From sequence record MZ681930.1: a stretch of 64,000 bases of DNA; one strand, written 5' to 3'. Under the pieces are notes generated by a model that worked only from the letters and a program-made list of their open reading frames with translations, did no database searches and was not told the DNA's origin. Shown here in pieces: positions 3,404 to 61,634 of this stretch. This DNA is from Enterobacteria phage phiC600P9. Numbering within the stretch: the first letter of the stretch is position 1; each line of letters begins with the position of its first letter. Made by a program: the position numbers and the translations under genes.

Positions 3404-3479
3404 TGGTCGAGGCAGTAGGGATCGAACCTACGACCCAGGACTTAGAAGGTCCTTGCTCTTCCTTCTGAGCTATGCCTCG
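3404..3479 (-). tRNA. tRNA-Arg (anticodon TCT), CCA encoded
   Basis: Hand-folded cloverleaf on minus strand: 7-bp acceptor stem, anticodon loop CTTCTAA, T-arm GTAGG-TTCGATC-CCTAC. Confidence 0.8.
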
Positions 3480-3483
3480 TATT

Positions 3484-3558
3484 TGGCGGACGTGATAGGA
3501 TTCGAACCTATAACCAATCGCTTAACAGGCGATCGCTCTGCCATTGAGCTACACATCC
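3484..3558 (-). tRNA. tRNA-Asn (anticodon GTT), CCA encoded
   Basis: Hand-folded: acceptor GGATGTG/CACGTCC, anticodon stem ATCGC/GCGAT with loop CTGTTAA, T-loop TTCGAAT. Confidence 0.75.
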
Positions 3559-3562
3559 AAAT

Positions 3563-3649
3563 TGGTGGGGAGTGATGGAGTCGAACCACCCGAGTCGCAA
3601 TGACAATGGATTTACAGTCCACACCGCTACCTCTACGGGATAACTCCCC
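3563..3649 (-). tRNA. tRNA-Tyr (anticodon GTA), type II with long variable arm, CCA encoded
   Basis: Hand-folded: acceptor GGGGAGT/ACTCCCC, anticodon loop CTGTAAA, 87 nt. Confidence 0.7.
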
Positions 3650-3658
3650 AAATTAATT

Positions 3659-3733
3659 TGGTGGCCCTGGGTGGAATTGAACCACCATCTGGCGATTATG
3701 AGTCGCTTGCTTGAACCTTCCAGCTACAGGGCC
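3659..3733 (-). tRNA. tRNA with CAT anticodon (Met, or Ile2 if lysidine-modified like T4 tRNA-Ile)
   Basis: Hand-folded: acceptor GGCCCTG/CAGGGCC, anticodon loop CTCATAA, T-arm GGTGG-TTCAATT-CCACC. Confidence 0.75.
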
Positions 3734-3734
3734 T

Positions 3735-3810
3735 TGGTGCTGATTGACGGAATCGAACCGCCGACCTTCTCATTACAAGTGAGTTGCTCTACCTACTGAG
3801 CTAAATCAGC
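3735..3810 (-). tRNA. tRNA-Thr (anticodon TGT), CCA encoded
   Basis: Hand-folded: acceptor GCTGATT/AATCAGC, D-arm GCTC-AGTAGGTA-GAGC, anticodon loop CTTGTAA. Confidence 0.8.
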
Positions 3811-3815
3811 AAAAC

Positions 3816-3905
3816 TGGCGGAGGCGATAGGATTTGAACCTATGAGTCGCCGGAGCGACTGCCGGTTTTCAAGACCGGTGCATTAAACCACTCTGCCACG
3901 CCTCC
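3816..3905 (-). tRNA. tRNA-Ser (anticodon TGA), type II, CCA encoded
   Basis: Hand-folded: acceptor GGAGGCG/CGCCTCC, anticodon stem CCGGT/ACCGG with loop CTTGAAA, long variable arm. Confidence 0.8.
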
Positions 3906-3911
3906 AAATAT

Positions 3912-4520
3912 TTATATATTGCTAATTTGATTTAGAATTCTTTTTGCTTGAGTATGACTTACGCCAATATGCTTAGCATATTTAGATAATTCACCACGCT
4001 TAGAAAAATCATATAATTTAGAAATTTCTATTCTTCTTTTTCTTTCATCCGCAGAAACTTTTGCTTCGTTTGCTTTTGCTATTTTACGTTTAGCTTCTTG
4101 AGAATGATTTTTACCAGCAAAGCCATTCTTCATTAATCCATTTGAAGACCATCCTTTTAATTTTCCGTTAGAATGTGCCTTTTTAACACCCAATGAAATT
4201 AATTCGCGTTGCTGATCTGTCATAGGATAATTATTTATATGGTCCCATCCACCTTCTCCGCCAAGTTTTAAATTATACACATCTGGTCTATTTAAAAACT
4301 CTTCTGTGACAATATTTTTCTCGGCTTCAAGCATAGATTCTTTATCATCAAAATACTCTAATATTTCTTTAGAGAAATTTTCTATACCATACTTGTCTTG
4401 GGCTCTTTTTAATAATTTACCAGAACCCATATATCCATCATCTAAATTTTCGGTAGAATGCACACCAATATAAATTTTATTATTAATTTTATTTGTTATT
4501 TTATAAAGATAAAAATGCAT
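3912..4520 (-). CDS. segB: SegB-like GIY-YIG homing endonuclease inside the tRNA cluster
   Basis: GIY-YIG motifs (YLYKITN...KIYIGVHS...DGYMGSGK); position between tRNA sub-clusters as in T4. ORF track extends to 4562, but the ATG at 4518-4520 puts the GIY motif at residues 4-6 as in other Seg proteins. Confidence 0.7.
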   Translation of the reverse strand: MHFYLYKITNKINNKIYIGVHSTENLDDGYMGSGKLLKRAQDKYGIENFSKEILEYFDDKESMLEAEKNIVTEEFLNRPDVYNLKLGGEGGWDHINNYPMTDQQRELISLGVKKAHSNGKLKGWSSNGLMKNGFAGKNHSQEAKRKIAKANEAKVSADERKRRIEISKLYDFSKRGELSKYAKHIGVSHTQAKRILNQISNI

Positions 4521-4566
4521 ATCAGTCCCTAATAAAGAACTGAGCGTCTCACGACGAGTCATAAAT

Positions 4567-4640
<74 letters not shown>

Positions 4641-4645
4641 AAATT

Positions 4646-4732
4646 TGGTGCGAGAAGTGGGACTCGAACCCACAAGGAAATCATTCCGCAGCATTTTAAG
4701 TGCTGTGCCTTTACCAATTTGACCATTCTCGC
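4646..4732 (-). tRNA. tRNA-Leu (anticodon TAA), type II, CCA encoded
   Basis: Hand-folded: acceptor GCGAGAA/TTCTCGC, anticodon stem CAGCA/TGCTG with loop CTTAAAA, long variable arm. Confidence 0.8.
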
Positions 4733-4733
4733 G

Positions 4734-4806
4734 CTGGGAATAAAGGACTCGAACCTTTGCATCCTGGAATCAAAATCCAGTGCCTTACCAACTTGGCTAA
4801 TTCCCA
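4734..4806 (-). tRNA. tRNA-Gln (anticodon TTG), U1-A72 start, CCA not encoded
   Basis: Hand-folded: acceptor TGGGAAT/ATTCCCA, anticodon stem CTGGA/TCCAG with loop TTTTGAT; the U1:A72 start is a feature I recall for T4 tRNA-Gln. Confidence 0.75.
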
Positions 4807-54315: not shown

Positions 54316-54318
54316 CAA

Positions 54319-54345
54319 TGGGGACCTTTCGGTCCCCATATTTTT
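54319..54345 (+). terminator. intrinsic terminator after gene 54
   Basis: Hairpin GGGGACCTTTCGGTCCCC followed by ATATTTTTATTT. Confidence 0.65.
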
Positions 54346-54634
54346 ATTTGCGGAATGAAATGAAAGCAGAAACTGAAGCAACTAAACTGTCTTCAATATA
54401 AACTTCAATTTTTACCGGAGCTTCTGACTCAAATTTACCTGTTACTACACCCTGAAAAATACTTTCAGTCTGTTCTGGCTTTGAAAAATTTTCAGAAGGA
54501 AAAATTCCGAACTTTTTATCTGTTCCAAAAATTTTAATAAATTCATCGTAAACCGCTTCGTTAAAAGCATTATCAGCAGGAATAACGCCTTCAACTACAA
54601 GTTCTTGACCTAAAAAGCGTAAAGAAGATTTCAT
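54344..54634 (-). CDS. hypothetical protein, 96 aa, downstream of the Alt paralogue
   Basis: ATG with SD GAGGAA; no motif recognised; last gene of the alt late transcription unit. Confidence 0.5.
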   Translation of the reverse strand: MKSSLRFLGQELVVEGVIPADNAFNEAVYDEFIKIFGTDKKFGIFPSENFSKPEQTESIFQGVVTGKFESEAPVKIEVYIEDSLVASVSAFISFRK

Positions 54635-54694
54635 TTTGTGTTCCTCATGTTATGTCAGTAAGACTATTATAACACAACATAAGGAACTTGTAAA

Positions 54695-56752
54695 CTACAT
54701 TTTGAACTTTTTAGACATTCCGTTAATGTTAACCAAAGAAGCTAAGATTTGAGAAACTTCGTTTTCCTCTTCTTTTGATTCTTCTACAAGGAATTGATTA
54801 AATCCAGCCATTGGACGAACTTCACCAGTTTCCATTAAATGGTCTCCATCATATACTGATTCTTCTAATTGTTCAGAAGGAGGAACGATTGCACCTTCGA
54901 TTAGATACTTGTTATAAGCAGTTTCTTTCATAAAGTACGTACTTACTTTATTAATCTTCAGTAAAATTCCACGCGGTAGAATAACTTCAGCTTCTGATGG
55001 AAATCCTGTTAAATGACCTGGAACGATAACTTTGATTCGCTCAGCTCCTTTAATTACCATACCCACTCTAGTTTCAGCATTTTCATTAGCGTATGTAGAA
55101 TGACTACCCATATGCATCAAATCTTCTGCATCAACGGAACCTTCTCCTTCACCAGAAAATACTGCGCCGGAATCATCTAAAGCCATATAGTTTTTACCAT
55201 GCTCGCCGAAGATATTTGGTTTAAGCGATGTAGATACGAAGTTCTTGAAATAGAACATTTTGTTTTCAATGTTATGACGCAAAGTTTTAAAGGTAACTTC
55301 TTGTCCACGGTAAAGTGTAGTTCCTGGAGGAAGAACTGAACCTTTAGCAAATGCAGAATCCAACGTCTCGATGTGTTTAATAGCTCGTTCCATATATTCT
55401 TCGCGGGTAGAATCAGGTTTACCCAAAAGGAACGAGTTCATTTCAACATATGAATCTGCACAATAATCTTCAATTACATCAGATTCAGCTTGAGTTAATC
55501 CTTTTGGAGTTACTTCGGTGCTTGCGTATTCATATGCCTGGGCAGCAGATTCATTAATCAATTTATAAATGCCATTCATTACAAATTGAATAATAGCTGT
55601 CTTTTCATCTGGCGTAGCTTTAGAACCTTTAACCAAATCATTGATAATTTTCTTAATAACATCAAAGCTATTAGAAATATTAATATCAGCAAGATCGCTT
55701 AAAATTTTATCAGTTTTATAATCAAAGAATTCTTTATTCTTTAAATATTCTTGAGAACCTTGATATGTTATATCGCTCTGCAACTTGATGGATGGATCAC
55801 GTAAACGTGCATGGGCTAATGCAATATGATTTCGGAAGTTTTCTAGTTCATAATCGCTAGATTTAAAACGAGAAGCACTTCTCATACCACCGATAGCTCC
55901 TTTGCTGAAGTTTGAACCAATCTGAATAACGCCAGAGTTCATTGGTCCTTCTGCTTTATATACCGGAACTTTAGATTCAAACTCTTGATATTTCTTGGCA
56001 GCGAAGCTATCACCCTGAAGTGAAGCATCAACAGTAGAATATTGAGCTTGTGCTGCTAATCGACGACTAATTTTAGTTTTCTGAATAACAGCTTGGTCCG
56101 TGCGCTTATCATTTTCTAAAGCAATAGAAGCAGCAACAGCGACAGCTTTAGGAACAGCATTACCTGTTTTAACGTCTACATAAACATCACCAACCTTTGA
56201 TTCAACTTTTGTGAATAACTCAGTTGAAATAGGAGGTACACCTGGAATGTCTTCTAAATTGGCATTTTTACGGTAAACCATAATATATGCATACTTTTTA
56301 TCATAGTCCCAGATTTCCTTTAAAAGAACATATCGACCTGCTCCTTTAGTACGTACTAAACGGTCAGCAATAACTTGCATTTGACGAGCAGCGCCATTTG
56401 TTTTACTCTTTAGTACACGGAATAAGCACGCGTCAATTTTATACTGTTTCATTGTTTGAAGAGCAGTATCAAAAACAGCATTAATGACGCCAATTGGATT
56501 TCCACCCAAGTTTCTAAGCTTAACCAGTGATAATTTCTCATTAACACCTATCATTACGATATGCATCATTTTATCGCCCGGCTTAACGTTTTTATTCGTA
56601 TCACCGCCAGAGGTGTATGTACAAAATCTAAATCCAGGAAGCACGCTTTCTTCGCCGGCTTGAATAGCAAAAATTTGTGGTATTTTATGCTTAGGATTTA
56701 AGTTAACAACCGGCGCCGAAGCGCCGTCAAATAATTCTGTAATAAGTTCCAT
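54695..56752 (-). CDS. Alt-like ADP-ribosyltransferase paralogue, 685 aa
   Basis: Starts MELITELFD like Alt; conserved N-terminal region of about 210 aa; C-terminal R (TTLYRGQ), S-T-S (NFVSTSL) and E-x-E (SEAEVILPRG) motifs; starts 3 nt after the alt stop. Confidence 0.8.
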   Translation of the reverse strand: MELITELFDGASAPVVNLNPKHKIPQIFAIQAGEESVLPGFRFCTYTSGGDTNKNVKPGDKMMHIVMIGVNEKLSLVKLRNLGGNPIGVINAVFDTALQTMKQYKIDACLFRVLKSKTNGAARQMQVIADRLVRTKGAGRYVLLKEIWDYDKKYAYIMVYRKNANLEDIPGVPPISTELFTKVESKVGDVYVDVKTGNAVPKAVAVAASIALENDKRTDQAVIQKTKISRRLAAQAQYSTVDASLQGDSFAAKKYQEFESKVPVYKAEGPMNSGVIQIGSNFSKGAIGGMRSASRFKSSDYELENFRNHIALAHARLRDPSIKLQSDITYQGSQEYLKNKEFFDYKTDKILSDLADINISNSFDVIKKIINDLVKGSKATPDEKTAIIQFVMNGIYKLINESAAQAYEYASTEVTPKGLTQAESDVIEDYCADSYVEMNSFLLGKPDSTREEYMERAIKHIETLDSAFAKGSVLPPGTTLYRGQEVTFKTLRHNIENKMFYFKNFVSTSLKPNIFGEHGKNYMALDDSGAVFSGEGEGSVDAEDLMHMGSHSTYANENAETRVGMVIKGAERIKVIVPGHLTGFPSEAEVILPRGILLKINKVSTYFMKETAYNKYLIEGAIVPPSEQLEESVYDGDHLMETGEVRPMAGFNQFLVEESKEEENEVSQILASLVNINGMSKKFKM

Positions 56753-56755
56753 GAT

Positions 56756-58804
56756 TTATCCTTGAACGAACTTGTAAGGCATGTTTGCAATATCTATGCA
56801 AGACGCAATAATTCCAAGAGATGATTCTACTTTCTGTTTAACATTTGATGAAACAAATGATGCAAAGTCAACTCTATCTTCTATATCACCTGTCATTGTA
56901 ACCAATTCACCAGTTTCCATTAAATGGTCTCCGTCATAGATTACCGATTCGGTGAGCTCTTCCGTGGTCATAACTTCAGCTTGAATAAGCTTGTTGTTAG
57001 TTTTAACTGTTCCATCATTGTAAGATGCATCGGTTATTTTATTAACTTTGACCATTAATCCACGTGGCAAAATGACTTCCATTTCATTTGAAGGCGCTAA
57101 ACTTCCACCGGGTAAAACAACATTGACCTTATCAGCCCCAGTAATAACCCATCCAATTCCAACTAAATTATCGCTAGAATTTACTAGTCCTTCATCAGTT
57201 TTATCAATAGAAACACTTAGACGCTTTTCGTCTGGTAAAACACCTATAGATGAATCAGTCATCCAAGTACCAAAAATATTTGGATATAATGATGTTGACA
57301 CAAAGTTTCTAAAATAAAAAACTCGATTTTTTACCAATGCTTCATATATTGAAGGTAACATTCGCTGTGAACGATATAAAGTAATACCTTTTGGCAATCG
57401 ATCGCCATTTTTAAAGGCTGAATCTAAATTATCGATGGCTTGTTCTATTTCGGGTGCTGTCAAAATACTTGTACGCTCATCTGGATTATATAATCCCAAA
57501 AGAGCATTATTCATGTCTACATATCCTGAACCCACATATTCACGAATTCCGCGTTTTTGAGCCGGTGTGTATTTAGATGAATCTTTATTTTCGACTATAG
57601 AATGCAATGACCATCCAACGGTAAGAGCATATCCACGTAATTCTCTTCGAATAATCTTTGTTTTTATTGCATTCCAAGAATTTTGCACTAACTCATTTGC
57701 AGCATCTTGATTTAAATGCGAATGCTTGTTAATATTTCTTTCTAACCAAGCACTTTTATATTTTTCTAAAGTATCATCGACTATAGAAGCAATAGTTTCT
57801 AAAGTTTTTATTGAAGTAATAGATTCTTTTCGTAATCTTTCTAAAGCTTTATTTTTTATTTCTGCATTAACATCAGATTCTTTATCTTCAGGAATTATAG
57901 AAGCTTCTCTGAATGCCATCCCAGCTGTAACACTATTAAGAGCATTCTCTAGTGCAAATCCTGAAGTAGAAATTACCGTTAATTCATTAGAATCAGAAAT
58001 TAAAGGCGCGTCCGCTGGTTTATTTAATTCTGCCGCTGAAGCCTCAAATTTTTGAAACATCGGTGTTTCAAATCTAGAAGATTCCAATGACTGACTTTGT
58101 GCAATTGCTCTACGGGAAATTTTAACTTTAACGATTACAGCTTGGTCAGAACGTTTATCGTTTTCTTGCGCAATAGATGCTGCAATTGCCTCATTTTTAG
58201 TTACTTGAGCTCCAGTATCTTTATTGATATAAACATCACCGACCTTCGATTCAACTTTAGTAAAGAGCTCGGTACTAATTTCCGGAACTCCTGGAATGTC
58301 TTCTAGTGATACATTTTTGCGATGTATAAGAATATATGCATACTTTTTATCATAATCCCAGAGTTCCTTAAGAAGGACGTATCTGCCACCTGAACGACTA
58401 CGGATAAGTCTATCAGCAATAACTTGAATTTGTCGAGCTTGACCAGCGGTTTTAGACTTAAGAATACGAAGCATGCAGGCATCAATTTTATACTGGCGCA
58501 TTGTTTGCATTGCAACAGTAAAAACTGAATTGATATAATTAATTGGGCTTGGACCAAGACCTTTCAATTTAGCAATTGAACCTTTAGCAGTTAATGTAAA
58601 AGGAACAATGTGCATCATTTTATCGCCCATCTTTAAATCACGATTAGTATCACCTCCAGATGTATAGGTACATAAACGAAAGCCTGGTTGTTCAATTGCG
58701 TCATCAACATGAACTGAAAAAATTTGTGGTATTTTCTTCTTTGGATTTAAGTTTGTAATCGGAAGAGTAGTATCTTCGTCAAATAATTCTGTAATTAGTT
58801 CCAT
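56756..58804 (-). CDS. alt: Alt, head-packaged ADP-ribosyltransferase
   Basis: From the second Met, 682 aa as T4 Alt (MELITELFDEDTTLPITNL...); R (ITLYRSQ), S-T-S (NFVSTSL) and E-x-E (SNEMEVILPRG) motifs; SD GAGAGG positioned for the second ATG. Confidence 0.85.
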   Translation of the reverse strand: MELITELFDEDTTLPITNLNPKKKIPQIFSVHVDDAIEQPGFRLCTYTSGGDTNRDLKMGDKMMHIVPFTLTAKGSIAKLKGLGPSPINYINSVFTVAMQTMRQYKIDACMLRILKSKTAGQARQIQVIADRLIRSRSGGRYVLLKELWDYDKKYAYILIHRKNVSLEDIPGVPEISTELFTKVESKVGDVYINKDTGAQVTKNEAIAASIAQENDKRSDQAVIVKVKISRRAIAQSQSLESSRFETPMFQKFEASAAELNKPADAPLISDSNELTVISTSGFALENALNSVTAGMAFREASIIPEDKESDVNAEIKNKALERLRKESITSIKTLETIASIVDDTLEKYKSAWLERNINKHSHLNQDAANELVQNSWNAIKTKIIRRELRGYALTVGWSLHSIVENKDSSKYTPAQKRGIREYVGSGYVDMNNALLGLYNPDERTSILTAPEIEQAIDNLDSAFKNGDRLPKGITLYRSQRMLPSIYEALVKNRVFYFRNFVSTSLYPNIFGTWMTDSSIGVLPDEKRLSVSIDKTDEGLVNSSDNLVGIGWVITGADKVNVVLPGGSLAPSNEMEVILPRGLMVKVNKITDASYNDGTVKTNNKLIQAEVMTTEELTESVIYDGDHLMETGELVTMTGDIEDRVDFASFVSSNVKQKVESSLGIIASCIDIANMPYKFVQG

Positions 58805-58827
58805 CATATCCTCTCTAGTGTTTATTC

Positions 58828-58835
58828 TATTTATA
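58828..58835 (-). promoter_or_regulatory. T4 late promoter TATAAATA (minus strand) for alt
   Basis: + strand TATTTATA is TATAAATA on the minus strand, about 24 nt upstream of the alt ATG; preceded by hairpin AAAGGCCCGAAGGCCTTT (58842-58859). Confidence 0.65.
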
Positions 58836-58856
58836 AAATTAAAGGCCCGAAGGCCT

Positions 58857-59045
58857 TTAATAATCTATAGGTAAGAGAGTACGATATATTTCAAACTTTG
58901 GACCTTTTTCATAAGCATCAAATGTTTCTGTAAATTTATTATAAGCGTATGCATCTACAAATTCGAGAATGACTTGTGATACAGAAGTAGAAACATCTCC
59001 ACCTTCTTTTTGAGCCACGACAATTGTTTCTAAGTAAGCTTTCAT
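58857..59045 (-). CDS. hypothetical protein, 62 aa
   Basis: ATG overlapping the DNA ligase stop; no motif recognised. Confidence 0.45.
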   Translation of the reverse strand: MKAYLETIVVAQKEGGDVSTSVSQVILEFVDAYAYNKFTETFDAYEKGPKFEIYRTLLPIDY

Positions 59046-60505: not shown

Positions 60506-60771
60506 TATTCATCCTTCAGAGTTTGGTTTACAGCTCTATTATAAATCAATTCATCATTAAGCTCAGGCAAAGACTTATGATATGTAGTTCTAACTTTATT
60601 TCCTTGCATCCAGTGCTTGACGTAAATGAAACCTTGCTCTACACATTTTTTAAAAATTCGTTCGTCTTTTTGAGCTCGGAATTCTGGATTGCATCTAAAA
60701 AATTGATTTACGTGACCGTAATCACGTGTAGTATTACCTTCATTTTCATAAATAGTGTGAACGACAAACAT
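60505..60771 (-). CDS. hypothetical protein (30.1 position)
   Basis: 88 aa ORF immediately upstream of DNA ligase. Confidence 0.5.
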   Translation of the reverse strand: MFVVHTIYENEGNTTRDYGHVNQFFRCNPEFRAQKDERIFKKCVEQGFIYVKHWMQGNKVRTTYHKSLPELNDELIYNRAVNQTLKDE

Positions 60772-61634
60772 TAGAATGCTCCTTGGAAAATATTATCACC
60801 ACTAGTAAATCTATTAAAATACCCTGCATCGCCAGGCTTGGTATAACTCCACGTATGGAATGGATTCATATGATACGGGTGTGTATAATATGGATTATAT
60901 GGATGTGTATAATATGGATTATACGGATTAAATCCAGGAGTTCTCCAGGTAGTGTTCCAACGAAAAGAATCGTTTTTAACCATCTTCTCAATTACATCTT
61001 TTATAGCTTTTTCACTATCAAAACTTTCTTTATTTTCCTTTGGTGAAAAAAGCTTATTTTCTACATCATTCCATGTATAAACTCGCTGCGCAGTTTTTGG
61101 AATATTGTCACGCTCTCCTCGAGCCATCCAATAAACCGGAACATTTAATATTTCACTCGCGTGGTCACAGTGGTGAGCGAGATCGTCAATATAACAAATT
61201 ACGTTATATTTCTCTTTTGCCTTTTTAAACAACTCTTCTTTTGAAGAATCATGGCCACACATCATTACTTCTGAGAAGGCACCAGGAAAAAGAGCATTCA
61301 AATTAAATTGACGATTCAACAGAGCGTCAATAGAATCACCCAATGCTGTAACAGCTACAAAATTATAATCTTCTTTTAATTTGTTAATTACACACAGGGC
61401 ATCTTTATACGGAGACAAGTAACGAATAAAATCTGAACGATTGTATTTTTCAATTAACTTGACGCCAAGTTCTTCATCACAATTAAAGAGTTTACCTGGA
61501 GAAATAAATTTCTCATCTTGGATCATTTTTAAAATATGTTCTAACGGAAGATTATATTTCTGAGCAAAATAAGGAAGGCCTGATTGCCAGCTTAAACATA
61601 CTCCATCAATATCAGTTAAAATAGTAGGCTTCAT
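60771..61634 (-). CDS. HAD-superfamily-like hydrolase (30.2 position) with C-terminal Pro/Tyr repeat
   Basis: 287 aa; N-terminal HAD motif I (ILTDIDGV); C-terminal tandem repeat NPYNPYYTHPY-NPYYTHPY. Confidence 0.6.
   Translation of the reverse strand: MKPTILTDIDGVCLSWQSGLPYFAQKYNLPLEHILKMIQDEKFISPGKLFNCDEELGVKLIEKYNRSDFIRYLSPYKDALCVINKLKEDYNFVAVTALGDSIDALLNRQFNLNALFPGAFSEVMMCGHDSSKEELFKKAKEKYNVICYIDDLAHHCDHASEILNVPVYWMARGERDNIPKTAQRVYTWNDVENKLFSPKENKESFDSEKAIKDVIEKMVKNDSFRWNTTWRTPGFNPYNPYYTHPYNPYYTHPYHMNPFHTWSYTKPGDAGYFNRFTSGDNIFQGAF

Follow-up and report, generated by a model that had tools for sequence, protein, structure and literature searches.

The locus between baseplate gene 54 and DNA ligase gene 30 of Enterobacteria phage phiC600P9, a Tequatrovirus (sequence record MZ681930.1), raises the question of what a T-even phage does with a second, full-length gene of the Alt type placed directly behind alt. 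In the stretch of 64,000 nucleotides analysed here (hereafter, the window), which over the 4.8 kb compared is 100% identical to record MT630408.1 of this phage, the genes follow the T4-standard order, namely, 29, 48, 54, alt.-3, two large genes, alt.1 and 30; we refer to the large gene next to alt.1 as copy 1 and to the one next to alt.-3 as copy 2. The explanation that best accounts for the observations, to which we assign a probability of roughly 0.7, is that the pair forms a late operon consisting of alt and a full-length paralogue, and that the product of the latter would be made late, packaged and injected as an arginine-specific ADP-ribosyltransferase, probably with a set of targets that differs from that of Alt. 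Copy 2 itself is already known: most sequenced members of the genus have the pair, and because hundreds of records annotate copy 2 and the literature mentions it, its retrieval in a genome scan is no discovery.

Two Alt-type ADP-ribosyltransferases encoded in tandem

A preliminary description of the window had reported two minus-strand genes with a common MELITELFD start, encoding proteins of 682 and 685 residues and lying 3 nucleotides apart, and had assigned both to the Alt-type ADP-ribosyltransferases. The list of open reading frames (ORFs) and the sequence confirm the former, and database matches bear out the latter. Both copies match Pfam family PF03496 (ADPrib_exo_Tox; E = 7e-34 for copy 1 and 1e-19 for copy 2) and, along their full length, PHROG 802, 'Alt-like RNA polymerase ADP-ribosyltransferase' (3.5e-264 and 3.7e-255, respectively, the latter match covering residues 1–685 of 685). 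The top PHROG matches of copy 2 are all Alt families, and its homologues carry the precomputed family PF26846 alongside PF03496; NCBIfam and PADLOC yielded no match to either copy. With 98% identity, copy 1 is the orthologue of T4 Alt, and the two copies are 42% identical to each other (BLASTP, E = 3e-161), far beyond chance.

The similarity is unevenly distributed along the proteins, reaching 68% identity over residues 1–238, dropping to 16%–26% over residues 239–420 and rising again to about 37%–38% in the catalytic region, with a short conserved block, SVYDGDHLMETGE, in the C-terminal tail. The conserved N-terminal region and the strongly diverged centre described earlier are therefore both present, the former being nearer to 240 than to the proposed ~210 residues and the latter spanning about 180–210 rather than ~250. 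Structure models of both copies show the same succession, that is, an N-terminal alpha/beta domain up to residue ~216, in which the secondary-structure elements follow in the same order, an all-helical middle, the ADP-ribosyltransferase core and an acidic tail modelled with low confidence.

Each copy has intact R, S-T-S and E-x-E motifs, which lie where they had been placed: LYRSQ at 476–480 (R478), FVSTSL at 501–506 (S503-T-S505) and EMEVILPRG at 574–582 (E574-x-E576) in copy 1, and LYRGQ at 480–484 (R482), FVSTSL at 505–510 (S507-T-S509) and EAEVILPRG at 587–595 (E587-A-E589) in copy 2. Residues R482, S507, S509, E587 and E589 of the latter do not vary among 17 aligned family members sharing 42%–95% identity with copy 2. 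Failure of the motifs to align with the catalytic site had been named beforehand as grounds for abandoning the assignment; in the family profile, LYRGQ of copy 2 aligns with the catalytic-arginine motif VYRGD of the C3-type enzyme 4xsg, and FPSEAEVILPR aligns with YPGQYELLLPR of 4xsg and NEYEV of the iota-like CPILE-a, which puts the arginine-type E-x-E motif of copy 2 in the catalytic position of the ADP-ribosylating toxin turn–turn (ARTT) loop. The profile was needed for this comparison, as a phmmer search of copy 2 against sequences of the Protein Data Bank returned no match at E = 0.01 or better. On these sequence grounds, both copies are Alt-type ADP-ribosyltransferases of the R-S-E group.

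Probable co-expression from a late promoter

Consistent with the single late promoter proposed previously, a T4-type late promoter box, TATAAATA, lies 21 nucleotides upstream of the first ATG of copy 1 and is the sole minus-strand match from 48.1 kb to the end of the window; across the whole window, 24 matches to the box were found vs 9.9 expected. Copy 1 could start at either of two consecutive ATG codons, the ORF beginning with MMELITE, and the spacing to the GAGG Shine–Dalgarno sequence is better for the second. The stop codon of copy 1 and the start codon of copy 2 are in the same frame (GGA-TAA-ATC-ATG), and an AAGGA ribosome-binding site for copy 2 is contained within the end of alt (CAAGGATAAATCATGG). 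The same arrangement recurs in Dhakavirus WG01 (CAAGGGTAAATAATGG, comprising AAGG followed by a purine, TAA, 3 nucleotides and ATG) despite ~50% protein divergence, and T4 retains the same alt stop followed by ATC-ATG. In WG01, a hairpin and a late-promoter-like box are likewise found upstream of the first Alt gene of the array. The junction looks like a translational-coupling layout, and the sequence is compatible with co-transcription of alt and copy 2 from a single late promoter. Readthrough of the alt stop codon would yield a fusion protein, which the prohead protease gp21 could still cut to the same mature products.

An ancient duplication maintained by purifying selection

The gene order around the pair, from baseplate gene 54 to DNA ligase gene 30, is the same in T4, T6, T2 and WG01, and WG01 encodes positional orthologues of both copies: ORF199 is 52% identical to copy 2 and ends with NKFKM (KKFKM in copy 2), whereas ORF200 is 49% identical to Alt and ends with KFIQG (KFVQG in Alt). 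The duplication is therefore older than the split between Tequatrovirus and Dhakavirus. Selection on copy 2 is strongly purifying, with a ratio of nonsynonymous to synonymous substitutions (dN/dS) of 0.038–0.046 at dS ~0.12 among the copies from the window, T6 and T2. When copy 1 is compared with copy 2, synonymous sites prove to be saturated even within the N-terminal third (dS 1.3), which rules out recent gene conversion as the source of the conserved N-terminus; the likeness there thus reflects constraint.

Across Tequatroviruses, copy 2 is nearly invariant, and the variable member of the pair, as far as the sequences tell, is Alt. Next to copy 2, T2 and T6 carry an Alt allele of 697 residues, whereas that of phiC600P9 is of the 682-residue T4 type. 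The two alleles are identical over residues 1–246 (100%), share 48% over residues 247–590 and 90% in the tail, and the middle of the T6-type Alt is 66% identical to Dhakavirus Alt vs 34% to the T4-type Alt. This pattern suggests recombinational exchange of the middle and catalytic module between Alt alleles.

Same or different targets

T4 Alt modifies Arg265 of the RNA polymerase alpha subunit. Between clades, the long insert that separates the S-T-S motif from the following strand cannot be aligned. Five positions before E-x-E, in the ARTT loop, all members of the copy 2 clade and the other non-Alt clades have an aromatic residue (F, Y or W), as in C3 enzymes, vs A, I or Q in Alt orthologues (F583 in copy 2 vs Ala in Alt). 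In R-S-E toxins of the C3-like and iota-like types, it is by these elements that substrates are selected. No profile–profile homology was detected by hhalign between the middles of the copy 2 and Alt clades (probability <1%), whereas the middle of copy 2 matches that of a third type, the 707-residue proteins like that of Salmonella phage KM16, with a probability of 97%. Because the middle, the insert following S-T-S and the ARTT loop all differ, the substrates of copy 2 probably differ from those of Alt, at least in part, and from the sequences and models, a partly different substrate set appears most probable.

Whether the middle amounts to a different domain, as had been claimed, is another matter. 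At the sequence level, the two middles are indeed no longer recognisably alike, but their predicted helices are arranged in nearly the same way, being modelled at residues 250–260, 273–295, 300–318, 328–355, 362–374 and 381–414 of copy 2 and at 248–257, 272–294, 306–324, 332–361 and 366–405 of copy 1. Moreover, the superposition of the copy 2 model on the single-copy Alt of a Mosigvirus extends from one end to the other (template modelling scores of 0.66/0.72 over 678 columns). Given the nearly co-located helices and this whole-length fit, we rejected as unproven the possibility that the middle is a swapped-in foreign domain; the models make a fast-evolving homologous helical module more likely. 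A phmmer search with residues 239–420 of copy 2 against 1.84 billion cluster representatives returned one match and carries little weight, since it did not recover the query's own family; the match, a 1,147-residue repeat protein containing the motif D-Y-x-L-x-N-F eight times, was judged spurious.

The same likeness is what speaks for a redundant isoenzyme, that is, a packaged and active copy 2 that modifies essentially the targets of Alt (RNA polymerase alpha and other Alt substrates) and serves as an extra dose or backup: the two proteins have the same domain architecture, predicted helix layout, catalytic motifs, promoter and processing motifs, and the gene is dispensable in T4 and 91 phage records. 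We nevertheless regard redundancy as unlikely, because the two copies have been distinct lineages, both under purifying selection, since before the Tequatrovirus/Dhakavirus split, and pure redundancy is rarely so stable, and because the ARTT loop, the insert following S-T-S and the middle are all clade-specific.

Predicted processing and packaging

T4 Alt is built into the prohead core in about 40 copies (PMC9026906) and is trimmed by gp21 at ITE-6 and LTE-619, which removes 63 C-terminal residues and leaves a protein of 68.2 kDa (PMC5694885). The same two motifs, ITE-6 and LTE-619, occur in copy 1. In copy 2, ITE-6 is present and LEE-631|S aligns with LTE-619 of T4 Alt; the 54-residue tail of copy 2 aligns with the 63-residue propeptide that gp21 removes from T4 Alt, and neither E6 nor E631 varies among 17 diverse family members, including paralogues from Dhakavirus and Salmonella phages. 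Mature copy 2 is predicted to comprise residues 7–631, with a calculated mass of 69.2 kDa; this prediction is validated by copy 1, for which the same calculation gives 68.2 kDa, equal to the published value. We propose that the N-terminal domain of copy 2 is a head-incorporation module.

Late expression would also be compatible with an intracellular role, in which copy 2 is not injected and acts late in the producing cell, or is made but left unpackaged, modifying host or phage proteins in the manner of ModA and ModB; the packaging of copy 2, after all, is read from its sequence. However, the retention of the N-terminal domain (68% identity to Alt), ITE-6 and the LxE|S site is sensible only for a gp21-processed head protein, so that we consider a purely intracellular role improbable.

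T4 as a deletion derivative

As the preliminary description correctly stated, only small ORFs separate gene 54 from alt in T4; these include alt.-1 and alt.-2, which occupy the copy 2 locus and have the same sequence as copy 2, from which they differ by a 1-nucleotide frameshift and a 1,700-nucleotide deletion. In T4, the alt stop codon is followed by ATC-ATG and ~345 nucleotides that match the start of copy 2 at 95% identity, and the remnant then shows a 1-nucleotide deletion in a run of A and jumps to the last ~20 nucleotides of copy 2. The deletion endpoints coincide with the direct repeats CTAAAGAGT (56413–56405) and CTAAAAAGT (54714–54706), which form a 9-nucleotide microhomology, CTAAA(G/A)AGT. 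By sequence comparison, T4 alt.-1/alt.-2 is a frameshifted and deleted remnant of copy 2. A 90-nucleotide probe spanning the junction matched 91 phage records nearly over its full length, which suggests that the T4-type deletion was a single event, common to these records by descent or recombination.

The novelty implied in the preliminary description does not hold. Most relatives carry the same 685-residue gene at this position, and T4 itself is without it: in a tblastn search of 50,697 phage records, 401, including T2 and T6, encode copy 2 at ≥90% identity, and its 90%-identity cluster in a large protein collection has 772 member sequences. The second copies of T2 (EcT2_00208, BBF63359.1) and T6 (alt.-2, AXN58232.1) are 99% identical to that of phiC600P9 at the protein level and have the same position and 3-nucleotide spacing. 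At the level of Tequatrovirus, roughly 80% of records have copy 2 intact and 18% are T4-like, these being fractions of records and not of independent lineages, with laboratory T4 stocks and RefSeq duplicates inflating both counts. The pair is annotated variously as 'Alt-like RNA polymerase ADP-ribosyltransferase' (twice), 'alt_1/alt_2' or 'NAD(+)--arginine ADP-ribosyltransferase' (twice), and the T6 record bears the label 'alt.-2; apparent insertion in alt.-2; also similar to alt'. Among paralogous duplications, Nolan et al. 2006 (PMC1524935) included T4 alt.-1/alt.-2 as well as a full-length duplicate of alt in phage 44RR, and a 2026 paper (PMC13600099) described the same gene pair with the same speculation on different targets or an expanded target range.

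The T4 annotation describes alt.-1/alt.-2 as 'an old duplication of the first part of alt', and that of T6 speaks of an 'insertion'; the full-length positional orthologue in Dhakavirus WG01 indicates that the long form is ancestral and that both annotations are wrong in direction. Three N-terminally truncated gene calls of copy 2, P0007, P0008 and P0010, start at Met-62, Met-158 and Met-271, respectively, and together account for 55 member sequences; Met-62 is the methionine that opens T4 alt.-2. Calls of the P0007 type may represent a frameshift without the deletion, and hence intermediates towards the T4 state, or may be homopolymer sequencing errors. We infer that copy 2 is an accessory gene, lost in T4 and ~18% of related records through one deletion and frameshifted in a few others. 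That it is a decaying duplicate approaching the condition seen in T4, or a catalytically dead structural protein of the head, as the deletion in T4 and 91 records and the truncated calls might be taken to indicate, is very improbable in view of the full-length ORF in phiC600P9, a dN/dS of 0.04, the invariance of the catalytic residues in 17 relatives and the 401 intact records.

Weighing the proposed function

Under the operon explanation, copy 2 would be translated late from the alt transcript, and enter the prohead core via its N-terminal region, where cuts made by gp21 behind ITE-6 and LEE-631 would leave a protein of ~69.2 kDa; the mature protein would then be ejected with the DNA into the next host and use NAD+ to mono-ADP-ribosylate arginines of host proteins. 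Several points weigh against this scheme. We infer the packaging of copy 2 from motifs and homology only, and the searchable literature yielded neither virion proteomics of any phage with copy 2 nor an activity assay or mutant phenotype for it. The structure models are of moderate confidence (predicted local distance difference test score, pLDDT, ~73) and come from shallow alignments of 15–17 sequences; with nearly the same helix layout predicted in both middles, sequence divergence alone is no proof of a different target. Finally, T4 grows well without copy 2 and Alt is non-essential, so that the contribution of copy 2 may be small or conditional.

Features of the locus and its surroundings

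The coordinates of the pair, its parts and other features of the window are compiled in Table 1.

Table 1. Features of the alt/copy 2 locus and other parts of the window (positions in the 64,000-nucleotide stretch).
Feature	Position	Strand	Remarks
Copy 1 (alt)	56756..58804 (58807 with one extra codon)	minus	682 residues from the second Met; 683-residue ORF
Copy 2, Alt paralogue	54695..56752	minus	685 residues, starts with MELITELFD
Copy 2, N-terminal alpha/beta domain	56039..56734	minus	Residues 7–238; Alt-specific, basic (isoelectric point, pI, 9.7)
Copy 2, hypervariable all-helical middle	55493..56038	minus	Residues 239–420; delimited from identity, models and hhalign
Copy 2, ADP-ribosyltransferase core	54860..55492	minus	Residues 421–631; ends at the predicted gp21 site LEE-631|S
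Copy 2, acidic C-terminal propeptide	54698..54859	minus	Residues 632–685 (54 residues); pI 4.6, predicted disordered (pLDDT <50 over 629–685)
Copy 2 segment absent from T4	54714..56413	minus	1,700-nucleotide deletion, from T4–window alignments
alt/copy 2 junction	56749..56764	minus	Ribosome-binding site within alt end, TAA, 3 nucleotides, copy 2 ATG
Late promoter box, T4-type	58828..58835	minus	Upstream of copy 1
G+C-rich hairpin followed by TTTT	58839..58860	minus	Terminator-like; just downstream of alt.1, abuts the late promoter
alt.-3	54344–54694	minus	96 residues; Pfam DUF5498; follows copy 2
Promoter of alt.-3, sigma-70/T4-early-like	54694–54666	minus	TTTACA-17-TATAAT with TG; 11/12 matches
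Perfect 9-bp G+C hairpin, T runs on both sides	54318–54339	both	Between convergent gene 54 and alt.-3
tRNA array	3404–4806	minus	Nine genes (ARAGORN)
Homing-endonuclease gene	3912–4520		Interrupts the tRNA array
tRNA-Tyr	3563–3649		Absent from the GenBank annotation
24-nucleotide tandem repeat	60873–60928	minus	2.3 copies, 90% matches; inside ORF 60771–61634

The hairpin upstream of alt, TTAAAGGCC-TTCG-GGCCTTTAA, was read by eye and not listed by a consensus terminator scanner; a conserved terminator upstream of alt has been described (Nolan 2006, PMC1524935). At the other end of the pair, alt.-3 has its own strong promoter, which begins at the copy 2 stop codon; mutants of T4 Alt.-3 with a C-terminal extension escape the CmdTAC defence system (PMC11618068). 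The hairpin between gene 54 and alt.-3 looks like a bidirectional terminator closing the alt/copy 2/alt.-3 transcription unit.

Elsewhere in the window, the tRNA array comprises genes for Arg, Asn, Tyr, Met/CAT, Thr, Ser, Gly, Leu and Gln, of which the unannotated tRNA-Tyr barely passes the Rfam cut-off (30.2 bits vs 29). The tandem repeat encodes a repeated NPYYTHPY near the C-terminus of the gp30.2 homologue, which has 287 residues in phiC600P9 vs a gene of 837 nucleotides (278 codons) in T4 GT7.

Relationship to known systems

Among characterised enzymes, copy 2 most resembles T4 Alt (NAD+--arginine ADP-ribosyltransferase), with which it shares the length, N-terminal domain, catalytic core, late operon and both gp21 motifs, and from which it differs by an overall identity of 42%, a middle of 180 residues with no detectable homology, a different insert and F583 in place of Ala. 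The second copies of T2 and T6 are orthologues of copy 2 that show no material difference except for the Alt allele with which they are paired. Dhakavirus WG01 has three tandem Alt genes, ORF201-200-199, and shares the hairpin, promoter-like box and junction with phiC600P9; its additional upstream paralogue, ORF201 (631 residues), keeps R, S-T-S and E-x-E, whereas the propeptide block YDGDxLMETGE is absent from it in the alignment, and its processing or packaging may be different.

Bacterial R-S-E toxins are secreted proteins of ~200–450 residues that have no counterpart of the N-terminal and middle regions of Alt and are not phage-head proteins. Those compared, namely, Vis of Vibrio splendidus, C3, Certhrax and CDTa/iota/VIP2, are 14%–25% identical to copy 2 and superpose on it only over the catalytic domain of 190–250 residues, the other ~430 residues being Alt-specific. 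Copy 2, a phage late gene with an Alt-specific remainder, is thus not a member of the C3-like or binary-toxin families. ModA and ModB are small (~200 residues), early and not packaged. They are phage R-S-E ADP-ribosyltransferases of T4 and belong to the same broad clade, which includes the Alt/VIP2 and Mod families (PMC5512222, PMC9503650); the length, full Alt architecture and late context of copy 2 speak against placing it in the Mod family.

Implications for T-even phages

To our knowledge, everything that is known about the ADP-ribosylation of the host by phages (Alt, ModA and ModB) comes from T4, which belongs to the minority of its genus that deleted copy 2. In T2, T6 and about four fifths of the sequenced relatives, a second enzyme is probably injected; given mature masses of 69.2 and 68.2 kDa, it would not have been separated from Alt on classical gels. 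Copy 2 is an easy and well-defined target for biochemistry. Tentatively, and with some doubt, we suggest that it might be a fourth injected ADP-ribosyltransferase of T-even phages, with substrates unlike those of Alt, ModA and ModB, for example, a component of host defence or translation. If true, this would explain why ~80% of Tequatrovirus records keep copy 2 under strong purifying selection; T4, the laboratory reference, would in that case amount to a naturally occurring null mutant, and the classical account of how T-even phages take over the host by ADP-ribosylation would have a gap.

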